64,000 bases of DNA, from the NCBI GenBank assembly GCA_965242865.1, contig CBDETK010000013.1, positions 704,001 to 768,000 of the forward strand. Reading direction: 5' to 3'. Below are positions 19,232 through 39,300 of this stretch, piece after piece. The notes below the pieces were generated by a model. That model ran no database searches. It was given only the letters and a program-made list of their open reading frames with translations, and was not told where the DNA came from. The translations under genes were made by a program, and so were the position numbers. Each line of letters opens with the position of its first letter. Positions within the stretch are counted from its first letter, which is position 1. Source of the stretch: Candidatus Latescibacterota bacterium (GTDB taxonomy: Bacteria; Latescibacterota; UBA2968; UBA8231).

Positions 19232-19897
19232 ATGATACTTAGATGTGAACAAAGTGCGGTGAAGTGCCTGATGCTCACTGTCACTATCTGTGTGTTCGGA
19301 AGTGGGCCAGCTATCGCATTGAGCGGCTCGACTCAAAGTACCAAAGCCTGGGCCCTGCCGGCCGTTTTTGGCTTGTTTGCCCGACTGCCGACGCAAGTTG
19401 ATACCATGAGGTACTATCAGGGCTTTGACTTCAGTGCTGGAAATGCCGGAGGCGAAAGCGATAATTACGATGGGGAACTTTTCCCGGGGACCGATGACTT
19501 GGGGATGTATCAACTCACTGACATTGATGGCAGTCCTTCGACTCCGGGATATTTCCAAACGCCACTCAGTGGAGGTGGAGATATAGTTGATATAGATATA
19601 TATCCTTTCAACGTGATTTTTAGACCGCCGAGAGGTAGAGATGGGGTGATAGGATTCCAAGAGATAATTGAAGGCCATACCTATGCAGTTTGGCCGCTCG
19701 ATGGGGGGCTTGTGCTCATGTACGTCGTTGAGGTCGGTTTATGGCCACCTGACCCCGTTGGGGGGTATGCTGGCGGGGCCATCGCTAATGTCGTGATAGA
19801 GTGGATGTATGCTCCAGAGTGGATGTATGGGGAACCGACGGCCATTCAAGCGACGCCATGGGGGCGATTAAAAAGCAACATCCGCAGGGGGCCATAG
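19232..19897 (+). CDS. Unit D small secreted partner protein, unknown fold, PWGRLK tail
   Basis: 221-aa ORF with gaggg RBS and a signal-peptide-like N-terminus (..GPAIA). Ends TAIQATPWGRLKSNIRRGP. No visible similarity to the other small families apart from the tail. Confidence 0.75.
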   Translation: MILRCEQSAVKCLMLTVTICVFGSGPAIALSGSTQSTKAWALPAVFGLFARLPTQVDTMRYYQGFDFSAGNAGGESDNYDGELFPGTDDLGMYQLTDIDGSPSTPGYFQTPLSGGGDIVDIDIYPFNVIFRPPRGRDGVIGFQEIIEGHTYAVWPLDGGLVLMYVVEVGLWPPDPVGGYAGGAIANVVIEWMYAPEWMYGEPTAIQATPWGRLKSNIRRGP

Positions 19898-19940
19898 CCC
19901 GATCTCAAACCACATGTTGTCAAGAAAAAGGAAAAATCAG

Positions 19941-21428
19941 ATGCGTTTTCTGCTGTTTTTGCTCTTGAGTCTGTACGCCGCCAGTGCTTGGGGCCAAGAA
20001 TTCGTCTGTGCGTTCGGTCTGGAGCCGGAAGGGGTCTCGGGTGCGTCCTCGCATAATGTGGCGCACTACCAGAGGGGAACGGTCAAAATGCTGATCCTGT
20101 TTGGGAAGTTAAACGGTGCCCAAGATGCAGGGTCATTGACACAGCTTTGGAATCGGAATGAAGACGCCAGTCCACTCTGGTCCGCCGCAGACTTGTTGAA
20201 CAGCGAATTTAAGGGCAGTCTAGCGCACTACTTCAAGGAGATGTCGTATGGTGCTCTGACGCTATCGCCGGGAAGCAAGGGCATTCCAATGAAATTTTAT
20301 CAGTCGAACAACAGCACTACCGGCATCGGCTCCTATAATATACCCCAAATCCAGACGGATTGTACCGTTCCCAATTGGAAAAGAGGTATGAATGGGACAA
20401 CGACAACGAACGAAGGGATGCGGCAGTTTGTAAGGGAGGTACTCGAAAACGCTGACAAAGAGCTTAATTTCAGTCGCCTTGCGACGTCCGGTGTTAATGC
20501 CGGCTTCTCAGAATACGATGGGGACAAGGACGGGAATATCGACATCATCGGTGTAGTTACTCCGCGAACCGTTTGCAGCTATAGCGGGACCGTTTTTTAT
20601 AATATTCAATACCCCGACCCAGACAACGCTAGTAAAATGATCACTGTGGACAGAGTCGTCACCACGGATTGGAGACGAAGTTTTCCTTATATCGTCGGCG
20701 TGGTCGCGCATGAGTATGGCCATGCGATGGGGCTGCCCGAACTATACGACCGCGACCATTTCTCTTCGAATGATTCAGCAAGTCACAGTGCTGGCATCGG
20801 AGCTTGGGGGACAATGGGAAGATCAGCGTCTTGGGATCACGAAGGGGCACGACGGGAACGAGCGGTAGATGGCCCCAATCCGCTGTCAGTGTGGTCGCGG
20901 ATAAAAGTGGGCTGGATCACGGATGATACTTCTGCTCCGCGAGCAAACCAGCGTTTAGAGAGCGTAACCGGCGACAAGAGCGTCGATAATATCCACGACA
21001 TCAACTCGTCCGGCGGCAAGGTCTATAAAATTCCGATGCTTGGTTCAACAACCGAATACTTTCTCGTCGCCAATCGGCAGAATCGCTACCCGTCAATTGG
21101 AAGCTTTTACGACACCTACGCTCCGGCGAGCGGGCTGTTGATTTGGCACATTGACGAGTTAGCAAGGTCTGGCAGCAACGATGCCAACCAAAACGGCTTT
21201 GACGCCTTGCGCATCGACACGCCGACGCCGGTGCGCTTTGTCGGCTTGCAGATGGGCGAGCCGCTCGCGCCGGTAGAGCCGGATCGCGTCAGCGCGGGCG
21301 ACCGCCGCCTCGAAGTGGTGTTCACCAGCCACAAGATAACCTTTGCCAACAACGTGCCGCTGCATATCCCTGCTCAGTTGGGGTCGATTGAAACAGAAAG
21401 GACTGTGAGATGCGCTTTATTTTGCTAG
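19941..21428 (+). pseudogene. Unit D M6 metalloprotease, truncated at ~21182 and fused to a fragment of the 45322 gene
   Basis: MRFLLFLLLSLYAASAWGQEFVC signal (paralog of 5899); HEYGHAMGLPELYD at 20709; EYFLVANRQ; GLLIWHIDE. From 21183 the DNA matches 34091-34271 and 46618-46798. Confidence 0.85.
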
Positions 21429-22081
21429 TCTTATGGCTACTGCTCGCCCTTTGGGAGCCAGTGGCGGCTCGGACGATTCGGGTCTCAGAAAAGGAATCAG
21501 AACACGGGGAACTGGCCTTGTATTGGGCTCTGATAGAGGCGGCTCCGCACGATACGCTGCTCGTCGCTGCCGGGTATTATGAGGGGGGTGGTATTGACAA
21601 ACCCCTGACGCTCATTGGGGCCGGAGCCGATAGCACAATAGTGGCAGGTCCCTACACGGCAATCGGGATAGGAGCCGAAGGGGTAACCATTGAAGGATTT
21701 TATATACTGGGCTTTGGGAAATGTCGTCTGACGAGTGCTATTTATTGTAATAATTGTTCTGCAACGCTCAAGCACAACATTCTCGAAGGGTGTTACTCGG
21801 CGATTACCACCTTTGATAATGCTCGACTAACCGTCAACTACAACCAACTAATAGGCAACTTCGCCTTTGAGGTTTTCCCCTTTGACCCTCCGAGTGCTAT
21901 TGACGCTCGCTTCAACTGGTGGGAGACGACGGTTGAACAGGAGATACAGGCCAAGATAGCCGCGACGATGGACGAGGTGGTGTATCGGCCTTGGCTGCAA
22001 GGTCCCGAGGAAATCTTCCGTGATCTCCCTACCTTTATATCCTTGATCAGTTGGGGTCAACTGAAACAGAAAGGACGATGA
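21410..22081 (+). CDS. Secreted right-handed beta-helix (pectin-lyase-fold) protein, array copy E1, SWGQLK tail
   Basis: Signal peptide; AAPHDTLLVAAGxYE..IDKPLTLIGAGADST beta-helix cap; IDARFNWW; 223 aa. Confidence 0.85.
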   Translation: MRFILLVLWLLLALWEPVAARTIRVSEKESEHGELALYWALIEAAPHDTLLVAAGYYEGGGIDKPLTLIGAGADSTIVAGPYTAIGIGAEGVTIEGFYILGFGKCRLTSAIYCNNCSATLKHNILEGCYSAITTFDNARLTVNYNQLIGNFAFEVFPFDPPSAIDARFNWWETTVEQEIQAKIAATMDEVVYRPWLQGPEEIFRDLPTFISLISWGQLKQKGR

Positions 22082-22082
22082 G

Positions 22083-22760
22083 ATGCGCTTTATTTTGCTA
22101 GTCTTATGGCTACTGCTCGCCCTTTGGGAGCCAGTGGCGGCTCGGACGATTCGGGTCTCAGAAAAGGAATCAGAACACGGGTACATGGCCTTGTTTTGGG
22201 CTCTGATTGAGGCGGCTCCGCACGATACGCTGCTCGTCGCTGCCGGGGATTATGAGGGGGGTAGCATCGATAAACCCCTGACGCTCATTGGCGCAGGGGC
22301 CGATAGCACAATAGTGGGAAGTTACAGCGGCGCGGGACTCGGGATAGGAGCCGAAGGGGTAACCATTGAAGGATTTTATATACAGAGCTACTTTGATAAA
22401 TGTCGTGGGACGAGAGCTATTGTGTGTAATAATTGTTCTGCGACACTCAAGCACAACATTCTTGAAGGGTGTTACTCGGCGATTACCACCTTTGATAATG
22501 CTCGACTAACCGTCAACTACAACCAACTAATAGGCAACTTCGCCTTTGAGGTTTTCCCCTTTGACCCTCCGAGCGTTATTGACGCCCGCTTCAACTGGTG
22601 GGGGACGACGGTTGAACAGGAGATACAGGCCAAGATAGCCGCGACGATGGACCAGGTGGTGTATCGGCCTTGGCTGCAAGGTCCCGAGGAAATCTTCCGC
22701 GATCTACCTACCTTTATATCCTTGATCAGTTGGGGTCGATTGAAACAGAAAGGACTATGA
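22083..22760 (+). CDS. Beta-helix protein, array copy E2, SWGRLK tail
   Basis: Paralog joined by TGA-g-ATG; most divergent variable patches (GSYSGAGL, QSYFDKCRGTRAIV). Confidence 0.85.
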   Translation: MRFILLVLWLLLALWEPVAARTIRVSEKESEHGYMALFWALIEAAPHDTLLVAAGDYEGGSIDKPLTLIGAGADSTIVGSYSGAGLGIGAEGVTIEGFYIQSYFDKCRGTRAIVCNNCSATLKHNILEGCYSAITTFDNARLTVNYNQLIGNFAFEVFPFDPPSVIDARFNWWGTTVEQEIQAKIAATMDQVVYRPWLQGPEEIFRDLPTFISLISWGRLKQKGL

Positions 22761-22761
22761 G

Positions 22762-23436
22762 ATGCGCTTTATTTTGCTGGTCTTATGGCTACTGCTCGCC
22801 CTTTGGGAGCCGGTGGCGGCTCGGACGATTCGGGTCTCAGAAAAGGAATCAGAACACGGGTACATGGCCTTGTTTTGGGCTCTGATTGAGGCGGCTCCGC
22901 ACGATACGCTGCTCGTCGCCGCCGGCTTGTATGAAGGGGGTGGTATTGACAAACCCCTGACGCTCATTGGTGCCGGAGCCGATAGCACAATAGTGGAAGG
23001 TCACTTCACTGGACTCGGGATAGGAGCCGAAGGGGTAACCATTGAAGGATTTTATATACGGGGCTCTGGGAAATGTCGTCTGTCGAGTGCTATTTACTGT
23101 AATAACTGTTCCGCAACACTCAAGCACAACATTCTTGAAGGATGTTACTCGGTGATTACCACCGATGGTAATGCTCGACTAACCGTCAACTACAACCACC
23201 TAATATCAGGAACCTTCGCCTTTGACGTTTTTCCCTCTGACCCTCCGAGCACTATTGACGCTCGCTTCAACTGGTGGGAGACGACGGTTGAACAGGAGAT
23301 ACAGGCCAAGATAGCCGCGGCGGTGGACGAGGTGGTGTATCGGCCTTGGCTGCAAGGTCCCGAGGAAATCTTCCGCGATCTCCCTACCTTTATATCCCTG
23401 CTCAGTTGGGGCCAACTGAAACAGAAAGGACTGTGA
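22762..23436 (+). CDS. Beta-helix protein, array copy E3, SWGQLK tail
   Basis: Paralog, 224 aa, TGA-g-ATG junction. Confidence 0.85.
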   Translation: MRFILLVLWLLLALWEPVAARTIRVSEKESEHGYMALFWALIEAAPHDTLLVAAGLYEGGGIDKPLTLIGAGADSTIVEGHFTGLGIGAEGVTIEGFYIRGSGKCRLSSAIYCNNCSATLKHNILEGCYSVITTDGNARLTVNYNHLISGTFAFDVFPSDPPSTIDARFNWWETTVEQEIQAKIAAAVDEVVYRPWLQGPEEIFRDLPTFISLLSWGQLKQKGL

Positions 23437-23437
23437 G

Positions 23438-24121
23438 ATGCGCTTTTTCTTGCTGGTCTTATGGCTACTGCTCGCCCTTTGGGAGCCAGTGGCGGCTCGG
23501 ACGATTCGGGTCTCAGAAAAGGAATCAGAACATGGGTACTTTGCCTTGTATTGGGCTCTGATAGAGGCGGCTCCGCACGATACGCTGCTCGTCGCCGCCG
23601 GCTTGTATGAAGGGGGTGGTATTGACAAACCCCTGACGCTCATTGGTGCCGGAGCCGATAGCACAATAGTGGAAGGTCACTTCACTGGACTCGGGATAGG
23701 AGCCGAAGGGGTAACCATTGAAGGATTTTATATACGGGGCTCTGGGAAATGTCGTCTGTCGAGTGCTATTTACTGTAATAACTGTTCCGCAACACTCAAG
23801 CACAACATTCTTGAAGGATGTTACTCGGTGATTACCACCGATGGTAATGCTCGACTAACCGTCAACTACAACCACCTAATATCAGGAACCTTCGCCTTTG
23901 ACGTTTTTCCCTCTGACGAATTGCGAGGCAATAGTGGCATTGAGTCGCTCAATAGCCTGAGTTCCATTGACGCTCGCTTCAATTGGTGGGAAACGGAAAA
24001 GCAGGCCGAAATTCAAGCCAAAATATCTAGTCCTAGAAAGGATCTAATCAATGTTTCTGACCATCTAACCGAGAGTACAAAAGAATTAATCATCAACCGG
24101 GAAAACGAGGGAGATAGGTGA
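23438..24121 (+). CDS. Beta-helix protein, terminal copy E4 (different C-terminus, no WGxLK tail)
   Basis: Core identical in protein to E3 from ALIEAAPHD to FDVFPSD, then a distinct AT-rich 3' end. The stop overlaps the GTG of the giant gene. Confidence 0.85.
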   Translation: MRFFLLVLWLLLALWEPVAARTIRVSEKESEHGYFALYWALIEAAPHDTLLVAAGLYEGGGIDKPLTLIGAGADSTIVEGHFTGLGIGAEGVTIEGFYIRGSGKCRLSSAIYCNNCSATLKHNILEGCYSVITTDGNARLTVNYNHLISGTFAFDVFPSDELRGNSGIESLNSLSSIDARFNWWETEKQAEIQAKISSPRKDLINVSDHLTESTKELIINRENEGDR

Positions 24122-26900
24122 TTACTATGAACCGTGCTATACTCAAAATAACCGTTCTGCTTGTTCTATTACTCGTCGGTACTGTCCATTCGGCGACCAT
24201 AACCACGTCAGGTCGTAAGGTACTAATAGACGGGGAGCCTTTCTTTGCTCTTGGCGTTTACTACCAAAGGGAGGGTTCACTTAGTACGACCCACACCTCA
24301 TGGCAAACGCTAAAGGATCATCGTTTTAATCTACTAAATCTATCCGATCCTTTTCCCGTTAGGTCCATTGATTCCCAAACGAGTCCGTACGCCTCCTCGT
24401 TTAGGGGCTTTATTACGGCGAATCAGGTGGACTTACCGTGGCTAAGCAATACTCACCAGCCCTCTTACAACAACCCTACTAATGCACAATCTATAATGCA
24501 GAACGCGGCGGCTCATGATATATACGTCATCGCAGACCAAGCTCCTTTTACACCTGATGGTGCCAGAGCATTAAACGGAACTAACCTGAGGACTTATGGC
24601 ATTGATGCCATGGGAAATGACGTCATAAATGCTACTAAGAGACAGGAATTCATTAACAATTTAGCATTGCCATCCCCTCAAGGGTGGTCTCATTTCGGTA
24701 TAGATCATGACAATTTCTTTGGGTGGAACAGTTTGGACGAACCTGTATGGTTTTGGGGGCCTTATGAAGGTACGTCCTATAAGGGGACGCCGATTCGTTA
24801 TAACGAAACTCAAGTAACGAATATGTATAATAACCTAATCTTGGATAGCTATAATAAAATCAAGGCTGTCGATAGCACTCACGTCGTATTTATGAATTTC
24901 GCATACGCTCACGGATCCGCTTTTAGTGGGGGTGCGGCCTCGTGGAATGCGGATGGCGAGTTGGTCGTCGGAGGGGATAACATTGTCGATAATTATGTAA
25001 GAGACTTAAGACGTTACAGTCAAGCGGCTGACATTATTGCCATGGATATCTATCCGATACATAGCTACAGAGGCCGGACGCGCGGTACTTGGCCTGATCG
25101 CTATTGCCTGTTCGATGATAGTAGCTTATCCGTTATTGGAAAATATCAGAAATTGCTCAATGAGCGCGTCGTAACCGATAAGCCTGTTTACCAAGTACTA
25201 CAGTCGTGGACTGGTGCCATGAGGCCAACTCTGACGACAGCAGAAGTACGATTTCAAGCGTATGATGCAATCATCAACGGGGCTGCGGGCCTACTGTGGT
25301 TTGGCTGGCATGTTCCTGCTGCGTCCTCAGGGACGGACCTTACTTGGGAGCGCACCAAGGTGCTCGTGCGCGACGAGTTAAGCGATCCCATTCTCTATCC
25401 CGTCTTGTCGGCGGATACGTCTCCCCTCCACAGTTCGGTCTCCGTCGATACGCCTGATATAGAATTCTTACTCAAGAAATACAATGGCCAGTCGTATCTT
25501 TTCGCGGCTATACTTCTTCCACGGCGACCCACAGCGCAGTAACTTTTCGTGGGTTGTGTTCACAGGCGACGAGTGCTGAGGTGCTATTCGAGTCGCGCAT
25601 GGTCACTTGCCGTAATGGGGAAATCCAAGACAGCTTCGATCCCTACCAAGTGCATGTGTATAAACTCGACAACTGGTCGGGAACACTGGCTCAGAATACG
25701 ACTTGGAGCGGCACGGTCCGAGTCTCCGGTGATATAACGGTTGGTTCGGGTACTACACTGACATTGGAGCAGGGGACCGAGGTTCGCTTTCTGGCTAACA
25801 CGGATGATACCAACGGCGGCGACGACACCGCTCGCTCGGAACTGATCGTCGAGGGCACACTCAACGCGAACGCCGGCACCATCACCTTCCGCTCGGCGAG
25901 TGCTTCTTCGTCCAATACTGATTGGTATGGCATCCGCGTGGCCACCGGCGGTCGTGCCGATGTGTCCAACGCAACGATCCGCGATGGGATGCACTGTGTG
26001 CAGACCCATCAACTCAACTCGGTCACGCTGACCGGCCTGACCTGCGGTAATGGTGCTTCGCCGGTGCGCTTTGCCGAAAACAGCACGGACGCGGTAGCTA
26101 CCTACCAAGTACTGGGAGCCTCGTCGGTTATGTGGACGCTGGGCGGCGCGGATGAGACACTCTTTACCATAAATGCTACCGGTCAGTTGAGGTTTGCTAC
26201 CCCCCCGAACTTTGAGATGCCAAGTGGTAGTGGTGCGAATCGCGATAATACTTACGAAGTAACGGTGGAGGGGTATGCCGGGGAAGTCTATACGCTTTTC
26301 CCGGTGGTTGTGCAGGTGTTTAATGTGGAGGAGGAGGGGTCGGTTTCGCTGACGGGGGGGAGGCCGGAAGTGGATCAGGTGGTGGTGGCGACCTTGACCG
26401 ATCCGGATGGCGTGGTGGGGGTTCCGTCTTGGTGGTGGGAACGGGGGTCGAGTACGACGGATACGTGGACGGAGATTGCGTTGGCACATGCTGAGTCCTA
26501 CAAGCCGCAGCGGGATGATATAGGGTATCAGCTACGGGCGACGGCGCATTACACCGACCGTCATGGCTCCAACAAAAGTGCGTCGGGGGCCACGAGTGCG
26601 TCGGTGGTCGGTCGGCCGAGTGCGCCGCGGGAGTTTGAGGCGGTCCCGGGCGCGGGTGCCGGGGAGGTGGTCTTGCGTTGGCAGCCGCCGGCGTCGGATG
26701 GGGGGTTGCCGATAGATGTTTATAAAGTGCTGTATTTTTCGGAGACGCAGCCGAATACGGATAAGGCTGGTTTTTCGGCGGTGTCGGGGGGTTCGTCGGC
26801 ACGGGACACGACGATTAAGGGGTTGACCAACGGGACGCGGTATGTGTTTCGGGTGGCCGCCCATAACGAAGTGGGCAACGGGGATCGGGCCGAGGCAAAG

Positions 26901-29890
26901 GCGACGCCGCAGGTTCCCTGTCAACTGACGGGGGCGACGGTTCCGACGTTTGCGGAAAACGCCCTTGGGGCGGTAGGCACGTACACGGCGAGTGCGGGGT
27001 GTGGTTCGGCGTTGTCGTGGAAGTTGGCTGGGACGGATGCGAGTGCGTTTACGAAGTTACAAGGGACGGGCACGTCGCGGATGCTTGAGTTCAAGCGTCC
27101 TCCCAACTTTGAGCAGCCTGCCGACGCCGACAAGAACAACACCTACGCGGTGTCGGTGTCCATCGGCGACGTATCCGTGCCGGTGACCGTGTCGGTGACC
27201 GATGCCAACGATGCCGGTGTCGTTAGCCTTTCGACGACCGCGCCGCGAGCGGAGGAATCCCTCACGGCGACGCTGTCGGACGAAGATGGGATTGCAGAGC
27301 CGGTGTATTGGACACCCCACTATGAGGGTGCCTCGGACAGCGGCGGCGTAACCGGGCCGGCGTCGGAGGCGACGCAGACATGGACGCTGACTATCCCCAA
27401 CAGCCGCGTGGGGCAACCCCTGCGTATCCAAGCTGACTACACAGACTCTTTTGGCGCGGCGTCGGCGACGAGTGCTTTGACTTCGCCGGTGCGCCCGGCC
27501 TCCAACCGCGCCCCGTCGGTGTCGGGTCCGGCGTCGGTGGACATAGCCGAAAACAGTTCCTCACCGTGGTTGTTGGGCACCTATACTGGCCGCGACCCGG
27601 ATGGCGACGATCTGACGTGGAGTATAACGGGCACGGATGCGAGTGCGTTTGAATTGAAGGAACCGGCGTCGCCGGGGACGGAGCCGTCGCGGGAACTCCA
27701 TTTGGCGAATGCGGCCGATTATGAAGCCCAAGCGCGCTACGACGTGTGGGTGAAGGTCTCCGACGCGGTGCTGTCGGACAGCCTGCGGGTGTCGGTGTCG
27801 GTCGTCAATCAGAACGAGGATGGGTCGGTGGTGCTGACGGGGGGGTTGCCGCCGGAGGTGGGCACGGCAGTGGTGGCGGGGTTGACCGATCCGGATGGGC
27901 AGATTACGGGATCGGCTTGGCAGTGGCAGCGTCGGTTGGGCACAACGGGAGCATGGGAAGCGATTGGGGCCGGGGTGTCGGGGGCTTCGTCGGCGGTGTC
28001 GGGTGCGGCCTCGGCGTATCCTGAGCTATCGAGTTACACGCCGGTGTCGGGCGATGTGGGGTGGCAGTTGCAGGCGACGGTGCGCTACCGCGATGGGCAC
28101 GATCCCAACACGGAACGGACGGCAGAGAGTGATCCAAGTGAGGCGGTGGTCGGTCCGCCGGTTGCGCCGTCGGGGGTGTCGTTTCGGTCGGGGTGGACGC
28201 AGGTTCGGGTGGAGTGGTCGGCGGTGGTCGCGGCGACGAGCTACGCGGTGCAAGGGCAGAGCAAACCCTTTGATGGCGGGTCGTGGCCTTCGACGTGGAC
28301 ATCATTGGCGTCCGATGTCGTTGGCCGGCGGCGGTATGTTCACCAGGGGGTATCGCCGGATAGCCTGTATCGGTATCAGGTGCGGGCGCGGGTGGGCGAG
28401 TTGGAGAGTGCGTGGTCGGCGGCGGAGCCTTTGGCAGGGGTTCAGCCCGGGGTGGGTTCGCCGACGGGGTTTACCGCCGAGGCCGGGGCGAGCGAGGCGA
28501 CGCTGCGGTGGACGGGGCCGGATCATGCCAGCATCACCAAGTGGCGGTATCGGGATGTGACGGCGGAGGGGGCCGATACGGACGGGGACTGGCTGGACGC
28601 GACGGTCAGCGGTAGTGCCGTGGCGGGGTGGTCGGCCCCGGTAGAAGGCTTGACGGCCGGTCAAGCGTATCGGTTTCAAGTGCGGGCGGTCAATGGGGCC
28701 GGCGGCGGTCGGCCTTCGGCGGTGAGCAATACGGTCACGCCGTGGTTGGCTCGGCCCACCGGCGGTTCGGTTTCGGTGCAAGCCGGCCCGGCACTGAAGG
28801 TTGCTTGGTCGGCGGTGGCGTCGGCGACCGGCTATGAGGTGGAGGGGCAGAGCAAGCCATTCGATGGCGGGTCGTGGCCGTCGGCGTGGACGACGCAGCA
28901 GGCCAACGGCGCACAGCCCTATGTGCATCGAGGGGTGGACGCCGACCGCCGCTATCGCTACCGGGTGCGGGCGCGGGTCGGCGAGACGGTGAGTGCATGG
29001 TCCGATACGCTGCCGGGGGTGGCGGGAGTGCAACCGCCGCCGGGCGCGCCGACGGGCTTGACCGCCACGCCGGGCATCCGACAGGCGACGCTGACGTGGA
29101 CGGGGCCGACGCACACCAGCATCACCGAGTGGCAGTATAAGCGGGGCCAGATTTTGGAGCCGATCACCGCGTGGGGAGGGTGGCTGTCCATGGGCACGGC
29201 GGCGACGACGCGGTCGTTTACAGTGCGGCATCCGCTGGTGGATGGGGGGTCTTATCGGTTTGAAGTGCGGGCACGCAACGGCGGAGGATGGTCGGCGACG
29301 ACGCGGACGGATACGGTGACGTTGCCGGTGGACACCAAAGGGAGGGTGGCGCTCTCGACGACCACGCCGCGGGTCGGTGACGACCTGACCGCGACGTTGA
29401 CCGACCCGGATAACCCGACGGATGTGGGGTTTACTTGGTCGTTTTTCCTGCCGGCAGGGGTGTCGGGGGCCAATGGGGCCGATCCGCCGCCCAGCGCAGT
29501 GCAGTCGGAGCCGTTGCGGGTGAGCACGGTGCATTTGGGGTTGCAGATCCGGGCGCGGGTGTCCTATGCCGATGATTATGGTCGGCAGCAGGTGCAAAGT
29601 CCCAAGACGTCGGCGGTGGTGGGGCCGCCGTGGGCGCCGCGGACATTTACGGCGACGGCGGGCGACGGGCAGGTGGTGCTTTCTTGGGAGGTGCCCTTGA
29701 AAAGCGGCGGCTCGGCGATCACCAGTTACCAGTACCGCTACAAGAAGACCAGCGGTAGCTGGCCGGAGCACTGGACGAGTGCCGGCACGGCGACGAGCGC
29801 GACGGTGACGGACTTGACCAACGACACTCCGTACTCCTTTGCGGTGCGGGCGGTCAATGGCTACGGCGACGGCACGGTCGCCTCAGCGGT
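26901..29890 (+). repeat. Stalk repeat copy 4
   Basis: Near-identical to the other stalk copies. Confidence 0.9.
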
Positions 29891-31952
29891 GGCGACGCCC
29901 CAGCCGAAAAACCGCGCCCCGGATGTATCGGGTCCGGCGTCGGTGTCGGTGGACGAAAACAGCCTCACGTCCACGTCATTGGGCACGTACACTGCCCGCG
30001 ACCCCGACGGCGACGAACTGACTTGGAGCGTGACGGGGACAGATGCCCGTGCGTTTGAGTTGAAGACGCCGACGCCGCAGGGGACGAACCCGTCGCGGAC
30101 GCTGCACTTCCGCAACAAGCCCGATTACGAGACCCAGGACGACTACCAAGTCAGCGTGCAGGTCTCCGACGGGTCGCTATCGGACAGCCAGTCGGTCTCG
30201 GTGTCGGTCTCCGATATAAATGACGCCCCGAAGTTGTCGTGTACGGCGAACTCGGTGCGCGAAAACACCACCGATACGGCGGGCACATGCACCGCCAGTG
30301 ATGAGGATGGCGACGCGCTGACTTGGAGCGTGACGGGGACGGAGGCCAGTGCGTTTGAGTTGAAGACGCCGACGCCGCAGGGGACGAACCCATCGCGGAC
30401 GCTGCATTTTCGCAGCAAGCCCAATTACGAGGCCAAGAGCAGCTACCCCGTTACGGTGTCGGTCTCCGACGGGTCACGGGCGACGAGTCAATCGCTCACG
30501 GTGTCGGTCACCAATGCGGACGATGCGGGCAGCGTAACTCTGGCTCCAGACCCCCCCCAAGTCGGCCAGAAGCTCATCGCCACGCTCAAAGACGACGATG
30601 GGCGGGTCGTGGTGACTCGGTGGGCTTGGGAGCGGTTTCCCGAACCCTTTGGCGCGACGGGCGCGTCAGGGCTGGCCACGGGCGAGTACACGCCAGCGGC
30701 CGGGGAGGTCGGCCAGTATGTGCGGGTAACGGCCTATTATACCGATGGGCACGGGGAGAACAAGCAGGCGCAGAGCGCGCAAACCGCGGCGATTGTGGAT
30801 GTGCCGGGGGCCCCGCGGGACGTTACGGCATCGGCCGGCGACGGGCAGGTGGCGTTGAGTTGGAAGGCCCCGTTGTCGGATGGGGGGTCGAAGATTACCG
30901 GCTACCAGTACCGCCACAAGGCGGCGGGCGGCAGCTACGCTGGGTGGTCCACCACCACCACCACGAGCGCGACGGTGCGTAGCCTGACCAATGGCACAGA
31001 GTACACCTTTGCGGTGCGGGCGGTCAATGGCTACGGCGACGGGCGAGTGGCTACCGACACGGCCACGCCCCAGTCAAGCAACCGGGCCCCCTCGGTGTCG
31101 TGTACAGTACACTCGGTGGCCGAAAACAAGACCGGCACGGCGGGTTCCTGCACGGCCAGCGACCCGGAAGGCAACGCGCTGAGTTGGAGCGTGACGGGCA
31201 CGGATGCCGGTTCCTTCCAATTGACGGGCACGGGCACGTCGCGCACCCTCCACTTGGGGAGTAAAGCTAATTACGAAGCCAAGAAGCGCTACCAAGTCAG
31301 GGTGCGCGTCTCCGATGGCTCACTGTCGGATAGCGAAGCGCTCACCGTGTCGATTACCAATGCGGAGGAGGCGGGTTCGGTGGCGCTGTCTCCGGCCGTG
31401 CCGCGGGTGGGCAGGCTACTGACCGCGACGCTTACCGACCCTGATGGGGTGACAGGGTCTCCGTTGTGGGCTTGGACGCCCCTCGGCCCATCCGGGGCCG
31501 ACGACGACGATGCCGCCGAGCCTCCGGCGGTGTCTGGGGCCAATGGCTCCGCCACGAGCACCTACACCCCCACCACGGCCGGCGTTCGGATGCAGGCGAC
31601 CGCGTTCTATACCGACGGCCATGGCCCCAACAAACGGGCGCACGGAACGTCGGGGGCTGCCATCGACAAACCGGGGCCGCCGGGTGCCCTGTCGGCGCGG
31701 CCGGGCAACATCTACACGCGCGTAGATTTGAGTTGGACCGCGGCGGCGGCCAATGGTTCACCGATTACGGACTATCAGTATCGCTATAAGCGGAACGGCA
31801 CCAGCCGGTGGTCGGGTTGGTCGAGTGCAGGGACGGGAACCAGTTACACGGTATCCGGCCTCACGTCCAATACGGACTACAACTTTGAGGTGCGGGCGGT
31901 CAACGCGGTGGGGAGTGGGTCGGCCGCGTCGGCTACGGGTCGGTCGCGAGCC

Positions 31953-32138
31953 GAGGACGAGGACGAAGAAGAAACCGAGGACGAGGACGAAGAAGAAACC
32001 GAGGACGAGGACGAAGAAGAAACCGAGGACGAGGACGAAGAAGAAACCGAGGACGAGGAAGAAGAAACCGAGGACGAGGAAGAAACCGAGGACGAGGAAG
32101 AAGAAACCGAGGACGAGGAAGAAACCGAGGACGAAGAG
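31953..32138 (+). repeat. Coding VNTR (18/21/24-bp units) encoding E/D/T acidic linker
   Basis: Tandem gaggac(gaggac)gaagaagaaacc-type units giving EDEDEEET/EDEEEET/EDEEET. Confidence 0.95.
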
Positions 32139-32794
32139 CCGGCTGTGGAAGGACAGGCCGAAGGCGAGCAGACAGCGGAAGCCCCCGCCGAGGGCGATCA
32201 GACCGAAGAAGGCGAAGACGAACAGACCGAAGGCGAGGGCGAGCAGACCGAAGAAGGCGAAGACGAACAGATGGCGGAGGCCCCCGCCGAAGACGAACAG
32301 ACCGAAGGCGAAGAAGAGCAGACCGAAGAAGCCCCCGCGGCCAAGGTCGCCCTGCCCGACGCCGCCCTAGCCGCCCGAGCGGCCCCCAACCCATTTAATC
32401 CGACCACGACCCTACACGTCCAGCTACCCGCCAGCGGCCCCGTCCGGCTGACCCTATACAACGTCGCCGGGCAAGTCGTGCATACCTTGGTGGACACCGC
32501 GTTGGACGCGGGCTATCATACCTTCTACTGGGATGGACGAGACCAACACGGACGCCCCGTAACGTCGGGCGTGTACCTGTATCGGCTGGTAGCGGGACCG
32601 CACGTCGTCGTGGGCAAAATGGCCCTGATCCGCTGAGGAAAGAGCATGAGGAGGACATACTTAATGCACATACGCCACATCGCAACGAATCATACCCTTA
32701 TGGCAATTGGAAGCCTTGGACTCCAGTGCGCGTTACCTGTGGAGTTCCAACGCGAGATGTACTCCGCGCTGCATCCTCGCCCGGAGACGCCGTA

Positions 32795-34444
32795 ATGCGC
32801 CGGGGCATGGCTCGCCTTGCGGCTTTGGGATGCGCCCTGTGCTTGGGGCCGCCGTGGCTGGCGGCCGACGAATGGGTGATCGGGGGGCATGGCTTGCCGT
32901 GGGGCGAGCTCGTTCAGGTGCGCGCCCAAATCGACGACCAAAGCAGTCCGGGCGCGATCCAGTTGCGCGGCTTTACGCCCGACGAGAACATCATCACCTC
33001 GCTGGCGTGGGCGTATGGCAAGCCCAACGACTTGGTCAGCGAAGGCCATGCCGCGCTGTGGGACAATACAGCGGCCAAGAATTCCCGGTCGCTGTCCATC
33101 GTCGATGGCGACGACACCACCAGCACCGCCGACCTGTTCAAAACGGCCGGCGTCGATCAAGACGGGCGCACGTTCTTTTTGGACCTGGGTTCGCGCGTGC
33201 CCGCCGACAGCTTGGTGTTCTTTCCGCGGCAAGAGGGGACGTATGCCAATGGCAAGCCCTTTAGCGCCGACTTTGTCCGCAAGCACCGGATTTCCGTCAG
33301 CGACGGGCTGACATATATCAACAAGCAGCCGCTGTTCACCTTGCTGCGCGACATTCCGGTCAACCCCAACAGCGTGTTCACCATGAAGTTCCCCCAGCAG
33401 TTCATTCGCTTTATTCAATTGCGCGTGGGGTCGCGCAGTCCCTTTGAGATCGCCGAATTTGAACTGTACGGCAATGGGTTTGTGCCGCGGGCGACGTATC
33501 GCAGCCAAGTCATTGACTTGGGCGAGGTGTCCAACTACGGCACCATCTCTTGGGTGCAGCGCACGCTCGCCTTGGCCGATGGCGCATTGGTTGCATTGTC
33601 CGAGCCGGGGCAGACCTCGGTGGCGGTGCGGATGAAGACCGGGCAAGACGACAGCCCGCGGGTTCACTTTCAGAAGGTGGTGGACAATGAAACGCGCGCG
33701 GTGAGCCAAGAGGTGGTCTCGGAAGCGGACTACAACAAGCTGCCTTCGGGACAGAAGGGCGACATTGAGGACGACGCCGACAACTGGAGTCCGTGGTCGT
33801 TGCCGCTCGCGTCCGGGCAGTTGATTCCGCTGCCGAGCCCGCGGCCGTACTTTCAGTTGCAGATCGTCATGGAGAGCCAGTCCGTGACGCAGACGGTGCG
33901 CATCGACTCGTTGCGGATTGAGCATTCGCTGCCCCCGGCGTCGGCGGTCGTCGGCGAGATTTCCTTGGCGGCCGAACCCAACCCACCGGCCGACATCGGC
34001 GTCATCGACAAAGACGATACCGTGGTGCTGCCGAGTATTGACGGGGGCGAAGAGGTGCTCTTTGCCTACGACGTGCGCGCCGTGATCAACGCCAACCAAA
34101 ACGGCTTTGACGCCTTGCGCATCGACACGCCGACGCCGGTGCGCTTTGTCGGCTTGCAGATGGGCGAGCCGCTCGCGCCGGTAGAGCCGGATCGCGTCAG
34201 CGCGGGCGACCGCAGCCTCGAAGTGGTGTTCACCAGCCACAAGATAACCTTTGCCAACAACGTGCCGCTGCATATCCCTGCTCAGTTGGGGTCGATTGAA
34301 ACAGAAAGGACTGTGAGATGCGCTTTATTTTGCTGGTCTTATGGCTACTGCTCGCCCTTTGGGAGCCAGTGGCGGCTCGGACGATTCGGGTCTCAGAAAA
34401 GGAATCAGAACATGGGGAACTGGCCTTATATATGGCCCTGTTAG
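32795..34444 (+). pseudogene. 3'-truncated duplicate of the 45322 gene
   Basis: Near-identical to 45322-46798 up to 34271 (..FANNVPL), then reads out of frame into the beta-helix array. Lacks the C-terminal domain. Confidence 0.9.
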
Positions 34445-34992
34445 AGGCGGCTCCGCACGATACGTTGCTCGTCGCTGCCGGGTATTATGAGGGGGGTGGT
34501 ATTGACAAACCCCTGACGCTCATTGGGGCCGGAGCCGATAGCACAATAGTGGCAGGTCCCTACACGGCAATCGGGATAGGAGCCGAAGGGGTAACCATTG
34601 AAGGATTTTATATACTGGGCTTTGGGAAATGTCGTCTGACGAGTGCTATTTATTGTAATAATTGTTCTGCAACGCTCAAGCACAACATTCTCGAAGGGTG
34701 TTACTCGGTGATTACCACCGATGGTAATGCTCGACTAACCGTCAACTACAACCACCTAATAGCAGGAACCTTCGCCTTTGACATTTTCCCCTTTGACCCT
34801 CCGAGTGCTATTGACGCTCGCTTCAACTGGTGGGAGACGACGGTTGAACAGGAGATACAGGCCAAGATAGCCGCGGCGATGGACGAGGTGGTGTATCGGC
34901 CTTGGCTGCAAGGTCCCGAGGAAATCTTCCGTGATCTCCCTACCTTTATATCCCTGCTCAGTTGGGGCCAACTGAAACAGAAAGGACTGTGA
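34318..34992 (+). CDS. Beta-helix protein, array copy F1, SWGQLK tail
   Basis: Paralog; 5' half like E1, 3' half like E3 (mosaic). Confidence 0.85.
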   Translation: MRFILLVLWLLLALWEPVAARTIRVSEKESEHGELALYMALLEAAPHDTLLVAAGYYEGGGIDKPLTLIGAGADSTIVAGPYTAIGIGAEGVTIEGFYILGFGKCRLTSAIYCNNCSATLKHNILEGCYSVITTDGNARLTVNYNHLIAGTFAFDIFPFDPPSAIDARFNWWETTVEQEIQAKIAAAMDEVVYRPWLQGPEEIFRDLPTFISLLSWGQLKQKGL

Positions 34993-34993
34993 G

Positions 34994-35668
34994 ATGCGCT
35001 TTATTTTGCTGGTCTTATGGCTACTGCTCGCCCTTTGGGAGCCGGTGGCGGCTCGGACGATTCGGGTCTCAGAAAAGGAATCAGAACACGGGTACATGGC
35101 CTTGTATTGGGCTCTGATTGAGGCGGCTCCGCACGATACGCTGCTCGTCGCCGCTGGCTTGTACGAAGGAGGCAGCATCGATAAACCCCTGACGCTCATT
35201 GGCGCAGGGGCCGATAGCACCAGAGTGGCGGGTGCTTTCACGGCTCTCGGGATAGGAGCCGAAGGGGTAACCATTGAAGGATTTTATATACGGGGCCATG
35301 GGAAATGTCGTCTGACGAGTGCTATTTATTGTAATAACTGTTCCGCAACGCTCAAGCACAACATTCTCGAAGGATGTTACTCGGTGATTACTACCTCTGG
35401 TAATGCTCGACTAACCGTCAACTACAACCAACTACTAGCAGGAACCTTCGCCTTTGACGTTTTCCCCTCTGACCCTCCGAGCACTATTGACGCTCGCTTC
35501 AACTGGTGGGAGACGACGGTTGAACAGGAGATACAGGCCAAGATAGCCGCGACGATAGACGAGGTGGTGTATCGTCCTTGGCTGCAAGGTCCCGAGGAAA
35601 TCTTCCGTGATCTCCCTACCTTTATATCCCTGCTCAGTTGGGGCCAACTGAAACAGAAAGGACTGTGA
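34994..35668 (+). CDS. Beta-helix protein, array copy F2, SWGQLK tail
   Basis: Paralog, 224 aa, TGA-g-ATG junction. Confidence 0.85.
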   Translation: MRFILLVLWLLLALWEPVAARTIRVSEKESEHGYMALYWALIEAAPHDTLLVAAGLYEGGSIDKPLTLIGAGADSTRVAGAFTALGIGAEGVTIEGFYIRGHGKCRLTSAIYCNNCSATLKHNILEGCYSVITTSGNARLTVNYNQLLAGTFAFDVFPSDPPSTIDARFNWWETTVEQEIQAKIAATIDEVVYRPWLQGPEEIFRDLPTFISLLSWGQLKQKGL

Positions 35669-35669
35669 G

Positions 35670-36353
35670 ATGCGCTTTATTTTGCTGGTCTTATGGCTAC
35701 TGCTCGCCCTTTGGGAGCCGGTGGCGGCTCGGACGATTCGGGTCTCAGAAAAGGAATCAGAACATGGGTACTTTGCCTTGTATTGGGCTCTGATAGAGGC
35801 GGCTCCGCACGATACGCTGCTCGTCGCCGCTGGCTTGTACGAAGGAGGCAGCATCGATAAACCCCTGACGCTCATTGGCGCAGGGGCCGATAGCACCAGA
35901 GTGGCGGGTGCTTTCACGGCTCTCGGGATAGGAGCCGAAGGGGTAACCATTGAAGGATTTTATATACGGGGCCATGGGAAATGTCGTCTGACGAGTGCTA
36001 TTTATTGTAATAACTGTTCCGCAACGCTCAAGCACAACATTCTCGAAGGATGTTACTCGGTGATTACTACCTCTGGTAATGCTCGACTAACCGTCAACTA
36101 CAACCAACTACTAGCAGGAACCTTCGCCTTTGAGATTTTCCCCTCTGACGAATTGCGAGGCAATAGTGGTATTGAGTCACTCAATAACATGAGTTCCATT
36201 GACGCCCGCTTCAATTGGTGGGAAACGGAAAAGCAGGCCGAAATCCAAGCAAAAATAGCTAGCCCTAGAAAGGATCTAATCAACATTTCTGGCCATCTAA
36301 CCGAGAGCACCAAGAAATTAGTTATCAACCGGGAAAACAAGGAAGATAGGTGA
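35670..36353 (+). CDS. Beta-helix protein, terminal copy F3 (no WGxLK tail)
   Basis: Core matches F2 and C-terminus matches E4. The stop overlaps the GTG at 36350. Confidence 0.85.
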   Translation: MRFILLVLWLLLALWEPVAARTIRVSEKESEHGYFALYWALIEAAPHDTLLVAAGLYEGGSIDKPLTLIGAGADSTRVAGAFTALGIGAEGVTIEGFYIRGHGKCRLTSAIYCNNCSATLKHNILEGCYSVITTSGNARLTVNYNQLLAGTFAFEIFPSDELRGNSGIESLNNMSSIDARFNWWETEKQAEIQAKIASPRKDLINISGHLTESTKKLVINRENKEDR

Positions 36354-39300
36354 TTACGATGAACCGTGCTATACTCAAAACAACCGTTCTGCTTGCTCTA
36401 TTACTCGTTGGTACTGTCCATTCGGCGACCATAACCACGTCAGGTCGTAAGGTACTAATAGACGGGGAGCCTTTCTTTGCTCTTGGCGTTTACTACCAAA
36501 GGGTGGATACGTATAATACGTCTTTCACTTCATGGCAAACGCTAGCGGATCATCGTTTTAATCTACTAAATCTATCCGATCCTTTTCCTATTACGCCCAT
36601 TGATTCCCAAACGGATCCGTACGCCTTCTCTTTTAGAGGCTTTATTACGGCGGACTTACCGTGGATGCAAAACACTCACCAGTCCCCCCAGCCCCCCCGG
36701 CCCCCCCAGCCCCCTTACAACAACCCTACTAATGCACAAGCTATAATGCAGAACGCGGCGGCTCATGGTATTTACGTCATCGCAGACCAAGCTCCTTTTA
36801 CACCTGATGGTGCCAGAGCATTAAACGGAACTAACCTGAGGACTTATGGCATTGATGCCATGAGAAATGACGTCATAAATGCTACTAAGAGACAGGAATT
36901 CATTAACAATTTAGCATTGCCATCTCCTCAAGGGTGGTCTCATTTCGGTATAGATCATGACAATTTTTTTGGGTGGAACAGTTTGGACGAACCCGTATGG
37001 TTTTGGGGACCTTATGAAGGTACGCGCTATAAGGGGATGCCGATTCCCTATAACAGAAATCAAAATGTAGTACCTATGTATAATAACCTGATCTTGGATA
37101 GCTACAAAAAGATCAAGGCTGTCGATAGCACTCACGTCGTATTTATGAACTTCGCATACGCTCACGGATCCGCTACTAGTAATAGGAATACTGCCTCATG
37201 GAATGCGGATGGCGAGTTGGTCGTCGGAGGGGATAACATTGTCGATAATTATGTGGACGACTTAACACTGTATAGTGGAGCGGCTGACATTATTTCTGTG
37301 GATATTTACCCGATACATAGCTATGGAGGCCAGACGCTCGGTACTTGGCCTGATCGCTATTGCCTGTTCGATGATAGAAGCTTATCCGTTATTGGAAAAT
37401 ATCAGAAATTGCTCAATGAGCGCGTCGTAACCGATAAGCCTGTTTACCAAGTACTACAGGCGTGGACTGGTCGTATGAGGCGACCTTTGACAGCCACTGA
37501 AGTTCGATTTCAAGCGTATGATGCAATCATCAACGGGGCTGCGGGCCTACTTTGGTTTGGCTGGCATGTTCCTGAGGCATCTAGCGGGCATGATGATACT
37601 TGGGAGCGCACCAAGGTGCTCGTGCGCAACGAGTTAAGCGATCCCATTCTCTATCCCGTCTTGTCGGCGGATACGTCTCCCCTCCACAGTTCGGTCTCCG
37701 TCAATACGCCTGATATTGAATTCTTACTCAAGGAATACAATGGCCAGTCGTATCTTTTCGCGGCTAATACTTCTTCCACGACGACCCACAGCGCAGTAAT
37801 TTTTAGGGGGTTGTGTTCACAGGCGACGAGTGCTGAGGTGCTATTCGAGTCGCGCATGGTCACTTGCCGCAATGGGGAAATCCAAGACAGCTTCGATCTC
37901 TACCAAGTGCATGTGTATAAACTCGACAACTGGTCGGGAACACTGGCTCAGAATACGACTTGGAGCGGCACCGTCCGAGTCTCCGGTGATATAACGGTTG
38001 GTTCGGGTACTACACTGACATTGGAGCAGGGGACCGAGGTTCGCTTTCTGGCTAACACGGATGATACCAACGGCGGCGACGACACCGCTCGCTCGGAACT
38101 GATCGTCGAGGGCACACTCAACGCGAACGCCGGCACCATCACCTTCCGCTCGGCGAGTGCTTCTTCGTCCAATACTGATTGGTATGGCATCCGCGTGGTC
38201 ACCGGCGGTCGTGCCGATGTGTCCAACGCAACGATCCGCGATGGGATGCACTGTGTGCAGACCCATCAACTCAACTCGGTCACGCTGACCGGCCTGACCT
38301 GCGGTAATGGTGCTTCGCCGGTGCGCTTTGCCGAAAACAGCACGGACGCGGTAGCTACTTACCAAGTACCGGGAGCCTCGTCGGTTATGTGGACGCTGGG
38401 CGGCGCGGATGAGACACTCTTTACCATAAATGCTACCGGTCAGTTGAGGTTTGCTACCCCCCCGAACTTTGAGATGCCAAGTGGTAGTGGTGCGAATCGC
38501 GATAATACTTACGAAGTAACGGTGGAGGGGTATGCCGGGGAAGTCTATACGCTCTTCCCGGTGGTTGTGCAGGTGTTGAATGTGGAGGAGGAGGGGTCGG
38601 TTTCGCTGACGGGGGGGAGGCCGGAAGTGGGTCAGGTGGTGGTGGCGACCTTGACCGATCCGGATGGCGTGGTGGGGGTTCCGGTTTGGTGGTGGGAACG
38701 GGGGTCGAGTACGACGGATACGTGGACGGAGATTGCGTTGGCACATGCTGAGTCCTACAAGCCGCAGCGGGATGATATAGGGTATCAGCTACGGGCGACG
38801 GCGCATTACACCGACCGTCATGGCTCCAACAAAAGTGCGTCGGGGGCCACGAGTGCGTCGGTGGTCGGTCGGCCGAGTGCGCCGCGGGAGTTTGAGGCGG
38901 TCCCGGGCGCGGGTGCCGGGGAGGTGGTCTTGCGTTGGCAGCCGCCGGCGTCGGATGGGGGGTTGCCGATTGATGTTTATAAAGTGCTGTATTTTTCGGA
39001 GACGCAGCCGAATACGGATAAGGCTGGTTTTTCGGCGGTGTCGGGGGGTTCGTCGGCACAGGACACGACGATTAAGGGGTTGACCAACGGGACGCGGTAT
39101 GTGTTTCGGGTGGTCGCCCATAACGAAGTGGGCAACGGGGACCGGGCCGAGGCAAAGGCGACGCCGCAGGTTCCCTGTCAACTGACGGGGGCGACGGATC
39201 CAACGTTTGCAGAAAACGCCACTGGGGCGGTGGGCACGTACACGGCCAGCCCTGGGTGTGATTCGGCGTTGTCGTGGGGGTTGGCGGGGACGGACGAGAG

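Follow-up and report, generated by a model that had tools for sequence, protein, structure and literature searches.

In lampreys, the variable lymphocyte receptors (VLRs) are leucine-rich-repeat (LRR) solenoids whose variable face is composed of segments shuffled by gene conversion during somatic assembly. In Neisseria (pilS/pilE) and Borrelia (vls), antigenic variation draws on silent cassettes and a single expression site. A third arrangement is found in the rAID clusters of gut Bacteroidales, where arrays of orphan immunity genes lie next to effector-immunity pairs, as described in PMC12247911. The locus analyzed here is located in a window of 64,000 nucleotides from a Candidatus Latescibacterota bacterium (assembly GCA_965242865.1, contig CBDETK010000013.1, positions 704,001 to 768,000; positions within this window are given below). 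It comprises seven paralogous genes for small secreted proteins of ~224 residues, organized in two tandem arrays, E (four genes, 21410-24121) and F (three genes, 34318-36353), each of which ends at the coding region for a large predicted barrel (the head) followed by a giant stalk.

The genes form a lineage-specific, tandemly amplified family, in which unequal crossing-over and gene conversion are shown to hold the core, the signal peptide and one sheet of the protein constant and, at the same time, to shuffle old, divergent segments, i.e. the turns between the a and b strands of a β-helix and the outward-pointing residues of the b strands. For the variable side formed by these segments, the tentatively preferred interpretation, which we hold to be possible rather than probable, is that of a protein-binding surface capping the head, with a tail-less cognate copy and C-terminally tagged copies of the same and of other specificities.

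Array genes and the predicted fold of their products

Successive genes of an array are joined by the sequence TGAGATG, in which a single base separates the stop codon from the next ATG, and an AAAGGA ribosome-binding site is placed within the final codons of the preceding gene. The encoded proteins are 74–95% identical to E1. An eighth copy, G1, lies 3.3 Mb from the arrays (G000:C13:4060300-4060983), and a single-protein search and a family-profile search agree on exactly eight copies in the whole genome. In an initial interpretation of the DNA, hereafter the sequence-only reading, seven open reading frames (ORFs) joined by TGA-g-ATG had been listed; all of them were recovered at their positions, and every patch of variable residues quoted there is present in the alignment. 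The span given for them, 21410..36353, holds the arrays but also a 474-residue head, a 2360-residue stalk and a 572-residue ORF that had gone unmentioned.

The window is carried by a 5.6-Mb contig of a metagenome-assembled genome of 6.0 Mb (93.6% complete, 6.8% contamination). Metagenome assembly might have placed strain variants of a single gene in tandem, and short-read contigs from public runs fragment inside the arrays, leaving copy order and copy number neither confirmed nor refuted. Such an artefact is scarcely credible, however, in view of two arrays with different flanks and a third locus on one contig, of the exact junctions, and of further alleles of both forms of the protein (see below) on other public contigs; moreover, 73 of 91 pieces from the public run X1 and 75 of 97 from run X2 matched at 99% or more.

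Every copy starts with a hydrophobic segment, presumably a signal peptide, and lacks a lipobox cysteine. The Pfam family Beta_helix (PF13229) matches E1 with an E-value of 3.2e-4, and no Beta_helix match was obtained in the Pfam scan of E4. The NCBIfam model NosD (TIGR04247) matches at E 2.6e-12, covering only profile positions 4-117 of 377; no nos genes were noticed in the region, for which no dedicated search was made. An AlphaFold 2 (AF2) model calculated from 29 sequences is confident for residues 21-170, with a predicted local distance difference test (pLDDT) mostly between 85 and 96 in the core and low confidence in the tail, and displays five rungs of three strands each. Comparison of this model with 48,161 chains by VIA-align revealed the alginate lyase 6kfn_A as the closest structure (Z 18.6, root-mean-square deviation 2.6 Å over 148 residues), followed by 1qjv_A (Z 14.3) and by 7eea_A and 6c72_A (both Z 13.8), pectin methylesterases and phage tailspikes being found at Z 13-14 and NosD (7o0y_A) at Z 13.0. 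Altogether, 97 chains reached Z ≥ 8. Foldseek returned nothing at E ≤ 0.001 for the β-helix model (best E 1.8e-3). The β-helix fold proposed in the sequence-only reading is well supported by the model and its alignment with 6kfn_A, and the small proteins are best described as predicted secreted, NosD-like, right-handed parallel mini β-helices of about five rungs.

The same fold, the same cap motifs and the profile similarity connect the small proteins with the PbH1/NosD-type domains (PF13229, PF05048) of giant archaeal and bacterial surface proteins. In contrast to these domains, the protein described here is free-standing, secreted and of ~200 residues, has its own signal peptide and tail, occurs in tandem and displays a hypervariable side. 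Its scores are also far under the cut-offs of the respective families (20.8 vs 25.9 bits for Beta_helix on E1; 46 vs 300 bits for NosD).

A profile search of 1.84 billion representatives yielded 13,525 proteins at E ≤ 0.001, most of them giants in which the module is repeated, and about twelve of them stand-alone proteins of 214-259 residues with a signal peptide. The close family is rare, with 28 proteins found. Matches at E ≤ 1e-15 occur in four of the 76 genomes of the taxonomic family, and more than one copy in this genome only. A metagenome scan detected 31 loci, all of them distant (25-43% identity over the best segment), and a genome scan detected two Latescibacterota loci as well as 17 distant ones.

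Since polysaccharide lyases, esterases and depolymerases of tailspikes lead the list of structural matches, the small proteins could be modules that bind or cleave glycans, with the variable side as a carbohydrate groove, like that of β-helix lyases, pectin methylesterases and phage tailspikes, diversified towards varied polysaccharides; their adjacency to a head would then reflect no more than membership of an island of surface-protein genes. An invariant K-C-R in the center of hypervariable patch 4, the abundance of the module in giant surface proteins and the presence of long copies away from any head are in line with this possibility. However, a shared fold shows no function, and the columns that are invariant throughout the wider family correspond to structural motifs (GDT, G.G, EG, Asn positions and DAR.NWW) without a recognizable catalytic set. 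A glycan-related role would moreover leave unexplained why a conserved tail-less copy is joined to the head, as well as the predicted complex described below, and is considered somewhat unlikely.

Mosaic evolution and the hypervariable side of the helix

Among 486 aligned sites, 82 are parsimony-informative. The pairwise homoplasy index (PHI) is 0.205, lower than the 0.316 ± 0.019 obtained from 2000 permutations (p ≤ 0.0005). Incompatibility is observed for 1010 of 3321 site pairs, and at least 19 recombination events (Rm) are required. In 22 close alleles, each of the seven patches occurs in 10-19 variants, and all 22 combinations of patches are distinct (22/22); in-frame insertions and deletions (indels) are found in patches 3, 4 and 6. 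In both arrays, the long copy that lies beside the short one shares its patches p2-p6 (E3/E4 and F2/F3).

For an analysis of selection, sites were assigned to classes by means of 14 alleles located on other contigs, in order to reduce circularity, and diversity was measured on nine DNA copies (the eight of this genome and that of genome G030). The ratio of nonsynonymous to synonymous diversity (piN/piS) is 0.01 for the 99 invariant columns, 0.71 for the 35 two-state columns and 1.28 for the 26 hypervariable columns, which show three or more residues. When a site in the signal peptide is dropped, the ratio of piN at the remaining 25 hypervariable sites to piS across the mature core as a whole amounts to 1.72, with a bootstrap 95% interval of 1.21-2.42 and 0.18% of the resamples of hypervariable piN over regional piS at or below 1, although both allele sets share ancestry and the sites were picked for variability in related alleles, which pushes piN upward. 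These values suggest positive selection at the hypervariable sites, with a ratio of nonsynonymous to synonymous substitution rates (dN/dS) at or somewhat above 1, not decisively so. Over the entire gene, pairwise dN/dS ranges from 0.15 to 0.92 in 36 pairs.

Synonymous diversity varies between 0 and 0.57 along the gene. In columns ~86-99 and 136-150, which are invariant, synonymous change is absent as well, and their constancy reflects recent conversion rather than selection. Columns 111-130, in contrast, combine a piS of 0.25-0.34 with a piN of 0.00-0.06 (0 over columns 116-130) directly next to sites with four to six residue states, and columns 116-130 are kept constant by true purifying selection.

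The hypervariable sites are clustered, 22 of 25 having a neighbor within two residues, compared with 13.3 ± 2.8 at random (p = 0.0007). With strands assigned by DSSP on the AF2 model, no hypervariable residue falls on the third strand of a rung and the turn that follows it (0/34), whereas 22 of the 84 residues elsewhere, i.e. in the first strand, the a-b turn and the second strand with its exit, are hypervariable (p = 3.9e-4); the strand classes were drawn after the data had been seen, and one-sidedness was judged at the level of secondary structure. Along the b strands, variable and invariant residues alternate (e.g. 131/133/135 vs 132/134), as expected for side chains pointing outward and inward, respectively. 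Residues facing outward are invariant in the third sheet but not in the b sheet. This distribution supports, but does not prove, a stacking of the patches on one side of the helix.

The sequence-only reading had anticipated much of this pattern. Reassortment of the patches by recombination is well supported, and informative sites and the patch table alike show that F1 combines an E1-like front with an E3/E4-like back. The proposed spacing of ~22 residues holds for the first four patches (at about 36, 58, 81 and 102) and becomes less regular thereafter (133, 149), stacking on one face is borne out at the level of secondary structure only, and piN/piS at the variable sites, which bears on the dN/dS check put forward there, is 1.3-1.7.

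A neutral origin of the pattern could be envisaged if recent tandem duplication and gene conversion homogenize the genes while variation persists in surface loops tolerant to change. Variable-site piN/piS close to 1 (1.28 on the same codons), the in-frame indels, the two invariant stretches devoid of synonymous change and the rapid evolution of the whole island, including head and stalk (omega values below), would all be accounted for. It is more difficult to reconcile with purifying selection at columns 111-130 beside sites of four to six states, with outward residues that are constant in one sheet and variable in the other, with the finding that the same positions are also variable in a clade of 47% identity, and with the small fraction of bootstrap resamples at or below 1. 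Taken together, neutrality is rated as rather unlikely. If it were nonetheless true, the family would exemplify concerted evolution with a rung-by-rung alternation of strict purifying selection and free variation.

Two forms of the small protein, the head and a predicted complex

The last gene of each array, E4 and F3, encodes a short form, which carries a 12-residue insertion before the DARFNWW cap and ends in a tail devoid of YRPWL...SWGxLK. Both long and short forms occur in a clade of 45-52% identity; the protein sequence of the short tail is preserved there, at an identity of just 45-47%. In one genome of this clade, the two forms are identical over residues 1-75 (70/70 aligned) and agree in 53 of 89 positions over residues 76-175. 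The stop codons of E4 and F3 overlap a GTG start codon of the head (GTGA for E4) or, counted from an in-frame ATG, sit 5 nt ahead of it.

The long forms terminate in ...T-F-I-S-L-x-S-W-G-x-L-K and four further residues. Genome-wide, WG.[LIVM]K is found within the last 16 residues of 63 of 24,234 stop-to-stop ORFs of at least 100 residues, compared with 1 and 0 in control windows further in; the extended consensus is [PA]-T-[SA]-[VI]-[EQ]-x-x-[ST]-W-G-x-[LIV]-K, followed by 3-9 residues. A hydrophobic, signal-peptide-like start is present in 56 of the 63 tagged ORFs, and 14 of the 63 are located among giant genes at 682-740 kb. In the window, tags were detected at the 3' ends of 4930-5859, 11444-12334, 12491-13357 and 19232-19897 and of the five long β-helix genes; most stand-alone relatives in other organisms have the same ending. 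Known sortase and exosortase signals are followed by a transmembrane stretch, which distinguishes them from the SWGxLK tail, where no such stretch is found. A Pfam search detected no C-terminal sorting domain of the type IX secretion system (T9SS) in the small proteins, and a full-text literature search with six spellings of the tail motif returned one unrelated paper and none naming the motif. The SWGxLK tail is a candidate for a new sorting or docking signal in Latescibacterota. The 63 tagged ORFs span several unrelated families.

Sharing a tag with mostly secreted proteins would also suit exposed surface antigens, phage receptors or decoys, whose variable face would be selected for escape from recognition by phages, hosts or grazers and not for binding another protein of the same cell, and the family is indeed secreted, multicopy, mosaic and patchily distributed (see the four of 76 genomes above). 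Nevertheless, all copies are complete genes in an operon-like string, there is no sign of expression one at a time, and the present data do not bear on exposure or phages. An antigenic role is regarded as quite improbable.

Heads E and F are 84% identical (BLASTP) and the corresponding stalks 87%; dS between the two loci is 0.15-0.16, with omega values of 0.51 (head) and 0.41 (stalk). While head F and its stalk form one ORF, a single missing A at about 25509 (25509-25510) separates head E from its stalk. The extra A is present in contigs of all three public runs that cover 25509, one contig being otherwise mismatch-free to E, and one of these runs may be the source sample. Most likely, the split in E represents a one-base consensus error or a strain variant, and E would be one gene of about 2,840 residues like F.

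No Pfam or NCBIfam family matches the head, and by sequence no chain of the PDB is matched at E ≤ 1; Atlas gave a GH42 lead only, on 21% of one cluster. The AF2 model of the head, based on seven sequences, is of modest quality; it reaches a pLDDT of 60.7 and a predicted template modelling score (pTM) of 0.68 and contains eight strand-helix alternations. Foldseek aligns it best with the mannanase 4qp0 of glycoside hydrolase family 5 (GH5; E 9.7e-10), followed by GH164, GH42 and GH35, indicating a barrel resembling those of clan GH-A. LDEP follows strand 4 in all six covering sequences, and members of the family differ by indels in the loops that follow strands 6-8.

For the single pair of head E (residues 26-474, 7-row alignment) and the short form E4 (residues 21-227, 33-row alignment), a complex was predicted by co-folding. 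The score is 0.68 (0.00, 0.68 and 0.68 in the individual runs), compared with 0.00 for the best of three controls, and passes the mark set for such predictions. Of solved complexes, 116 of 157 attain this mark, as do 2 of 215 mismatched pairs, a calibration that is rough here because custom alignments were used. The runs share at least 13% of their contacts, and the pLDDT of the partner is at least 75. To our knowledge, the model could not have memorized a solved complex of this kind. On the side of E4, 37 residues form the interface, among them 12 of the 25 hypervariable sites (Fisher p = 1.9e-4 over 207 residues, p = 0.007 when restricted to the core); 20 of the 25 are located no further than one residue from the interface. 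The head contributes the loops after strands 4-8, which form the C-terminal face at the top of the barrel. Among the head interface residues, 7 of 26 differ between E and F, compared with 56 of 439 overall (p = 0.035), and pN/pS is 0.177/0.189 at the interface and 0.067/0.133 elsewhere. The model supports, without showing it, that E4 binds head E. The sequence-only reading had proposed inhibitors of allelic enzyme heads; the co-fold lends some support to this in that contact is made via the hypervariable face, which would make E4 a candidate inhibitor of a putative enzyme.

In the preferred interpretation, the terminal tail-less copy would bind the C-terminal face, i.e. the substrate cleft, of the GH-A-like barrel at the N-terminus of the giant surface protein, and could act as a cap or inhibitor of the head while both proteins reside in the periplasm. 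The tagged long copies would then have either the same specificity (E3 as E4, F2 as F3) or another one (E1, E2, F1 and G1). This arrangement would be reminiscent of a cognate immunity gene with a row of orphan immunity genes beside it. A further-reaching version involves a new form of contact antagonism and defence: the giant stalks would present an enzyme-like head at a distance from the cell, the tail-less copy, produced immediately ahead of the head, would mask it in the periplasm, SWGxLK-tagged copies, brought to the surface by the tail as a novel sorting signal, would shield the cell against the heads of kin (E3, F2) and the allelic heads of rivals (E1, E2, F1, G1), and recombination of the cassettes would create new specificities. 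This extension is judged distinctly unlikely.

Several observations weigh against a head-binding function. The predicted complex concerns a single pair, one of the three runs scored 0.00, the head alignment contains 7 rows, and the confidence of a model is not binding. A head is adjacent to just the two terminal copies, and since the E and F loci are duplicates of each other, their shared gene order counts once; the long copies at the G1 locus and in genomes G030 and G009 have no adjacent head. The similarity of E3 to E4 and of F2 to F3, being that of nearest neighbors, is what plain tandem duplication yields, and piN/piS values of 1.3-1.7 are compatible with neutrality because choosing sites by variability biases piN upward. 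No fused β-helix/head protein was found among proteins of 399-2000 residues, which is weak evidence. With regard to the head itself, clan GH-A enzymes carry their nucleophile Glu after strand 7, where four head sequences have Q, two have D and none has Glu. Owing to this deviation at the expected nucleophile position, the head may lack hydrolase activity.

Should binding of the head by the variable face prove true, the family would constitute a bacterial multigene repertoire on a solenoid scaffold. For giant surface proteins of the T9SS type, it would be the first family of partners or inhibitors of the heads to be described, with cognate and spare specificities told apart by a C-terminal tag. 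The pair is small enough for expression (about 200 residues and a 450-residue barrel), and with eight natural alleles in one genome the encoding of specificity becomes approachable.

Surroundings of the arrays and comparison with known systems

All large genes of the region are located on the + strand (Table 1). Both arrays are part of a duplicated segment, which extends from ~250 nt of the 3' end of the M6-like peptidase gene through the array and the head to the FN3/cadherin stalk. In the 572-residue ORF, the last 82 codons ahead of the F array are a 98% copy of the C-terminal end of the peptidase and define the left edge of this segment. An alignment of the upstream flanks revealed that the last ~50 nt of the peptidase gene are a copy of the 3' end of a β-helix unit in another reading frame. 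Corresponding remains of ~50 nt are situated ahead of E1 and F1, and 21 nt ahead of G1. The array boundaries are recombination scars; the relic before E1 marks the left recombination boundary of the E array. At 21183-21428 and 34091-34340, the peptidase and the 572-residue ORF share the 82-codon end and then read the tag relic frame-shifted by one base, so that both end in ...RCALFC and not in the SWG tag.

Table 1. Features of the array region, with positions in the 64,000-nucleotide window
Feature	Position	Strand	Description	Evidence
M6-like metallopeptidase	19914..21428	+	504 aa	Pfam Peptidase_M6 E 1.3e-7; NCBIfam TIGR03296 E 2.2e-26, 93.4 bits vs cut-off 110.8
Relic of unit 3' end before E1	21364..21409	+	tag-coding stretch, AAAGGA ribosome-binding site, TGA-g	repeat family D2/D3 begins 46 nt ahead of each ATG; flank alignment
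E1	21410..22081	+	long form, 223 aa: signal peptide, mini β-helix, NWW cap, PWL motif, SWGxLK tail
E2	22083..22760	+	long form, 225 aa; patches nearest to G1 (dS 0.07)
E3	22762..23436	+	long form, 224 aa; patches p2-p6 same as terminal E4 (dS 0.038)
E4	23438..24121	+	short form, 227 aa: 12-residue insertion, alternative tail without SWG
Head E	24118..25542	+	predicted secreted (β/α)8 barrel, clan GH-A-like, 474 aa	AF2, Foldseek
Stalk E	25554..32636	+	2360 aa: FN3/cadherin giant, acidic linker, FlgD_ig-type C-terminal domain	Pfam; 87% identical to F across 1985 residues
ORF between the two arrays	32726..34444	+	572 aa, family unassigned	GC content at third codon positions (GC3) 0.81 in its frame
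F1	34318..34992	+	long form, 224 aa: front E1-like, back E3-like
F2	34994..35668	+	long form, 224 aa; patches p2-p6 same as terminal F3 (dS 0.021)
F3	35670..36353	+	short form, 227 aa; junction with head F like that of E4 with head E
Head F fused with stalk	36350..45163	+	2937 aa; shows intact form of E gene

Acidic repeats rich in Glu, Asp and Thr, with periods of 9-24 nt, precede the FlgD_ig-type C-terminal domain of both stalks (31927-32221 and 44439-44793), and the length of this linker differs between stalks E and F. Other giants and neighboring genes of the island (5899-10695, 13465-14508 and 14603-19117) contain metallopeptidase-like regions, i.e. an M6-like one at residues 228-276 of 5899-10692 and a Reprolysin-like one in 13465-14505, and a gene neighboring the island giants carries a CHU_C T9SS domain. 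In other giants of the window, the heads are peptidase-like. Small SWG-tagged proteins of other families precede some of the giants. A general layout of the island, in which a small tagged partner is combined with a stalked head, is suggested. Between 19000 and 37000, promoter-like and terminator-like sites show no excess over shuffles (10 vs 7.6 and 15 vs 16.0, respectively).

G1 (L009:8624-14534, corresponding to G000:C13:4058624-4064534) and its counterpart in genome G030 (L018:6434-14844) are embedded in another tandem family of ~250-300 residues, whose inspected G030 members terminate in ...LRF. The lone β-helix copy of G030 is followed by a gene that begins with the first codons of the unit (MRFILL); this gene, 3' of the copy, fuses a stalk-neck-like domain to the tandem family of ~250-300 residues. 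Frameshifted remains of a β-helix gene lie directly upstream of a head fragment and FN3 gene in another species, G007 (L012:1363-2538), and decayed β-helix genes and head remains of related species were observed at this locus as well as at L069, L072 and L073 of G005. Within the genus, gain, amplification and loss of the locus are rapid. P0178, which was considered as a β-helix/head fusion, was rejected, its β-helix Pfam matches being located in the neck after the head and not in the module described here.

Literature searches combining Latescibacteria with sponge, cadherin or fibronectin, or orphan immunity with glycoside hydrolase inhibitor or β-helix, returned nothing describing the family. 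Diversity-generating retroelements resemble the present family in that variation is focused on the ligand-binding surface of a constant fold. They differ from it in the form of the variation, which here consists of dispersed patches with indels and synonymous differences. A retroelement of this type was dismissed as its source, the sole RVT_1 match of the genome being located 4.7 Mb away (C13:5488215-5488628).

The orphan immunity arrays described in PMC12247911 have in common with the present locus that a cognate copy, here a putative one, is coupled to a secreted protein and stands beside a series of diverged paralogues, and that nonsynonymous change is concentrated at a predicted interface. 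Diverged paralogues stand in tandem with the putative cognate gene, as expected of an orphan immunity array. In contrast to these arrays, no toxin activity, type VI secretion system (T6SS) or recombinase was seen here, the cognate gene is located upstream, and binding is a prediction. Moreover, the putative partner forms the N-terminal head of a giant protein that resembles adhesins and carries a C-terminal domain of the T9SS type. Like the pilS/pilE and vls systems, the arrays are made up of nearly identical cassettes in tandem, between which short variable segments are exchanged to give mosaics; unlike the cassettes of those systems, each copy possesses a start codon, a ribosome-binding site and a signal peptide, and there is no single expression site. 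With the lamprey VLRs, finally, the small proteins share a repeat scaffold with variable residues on one face, which here is encoded in the germline by complete, co-oriented bacterial genes.

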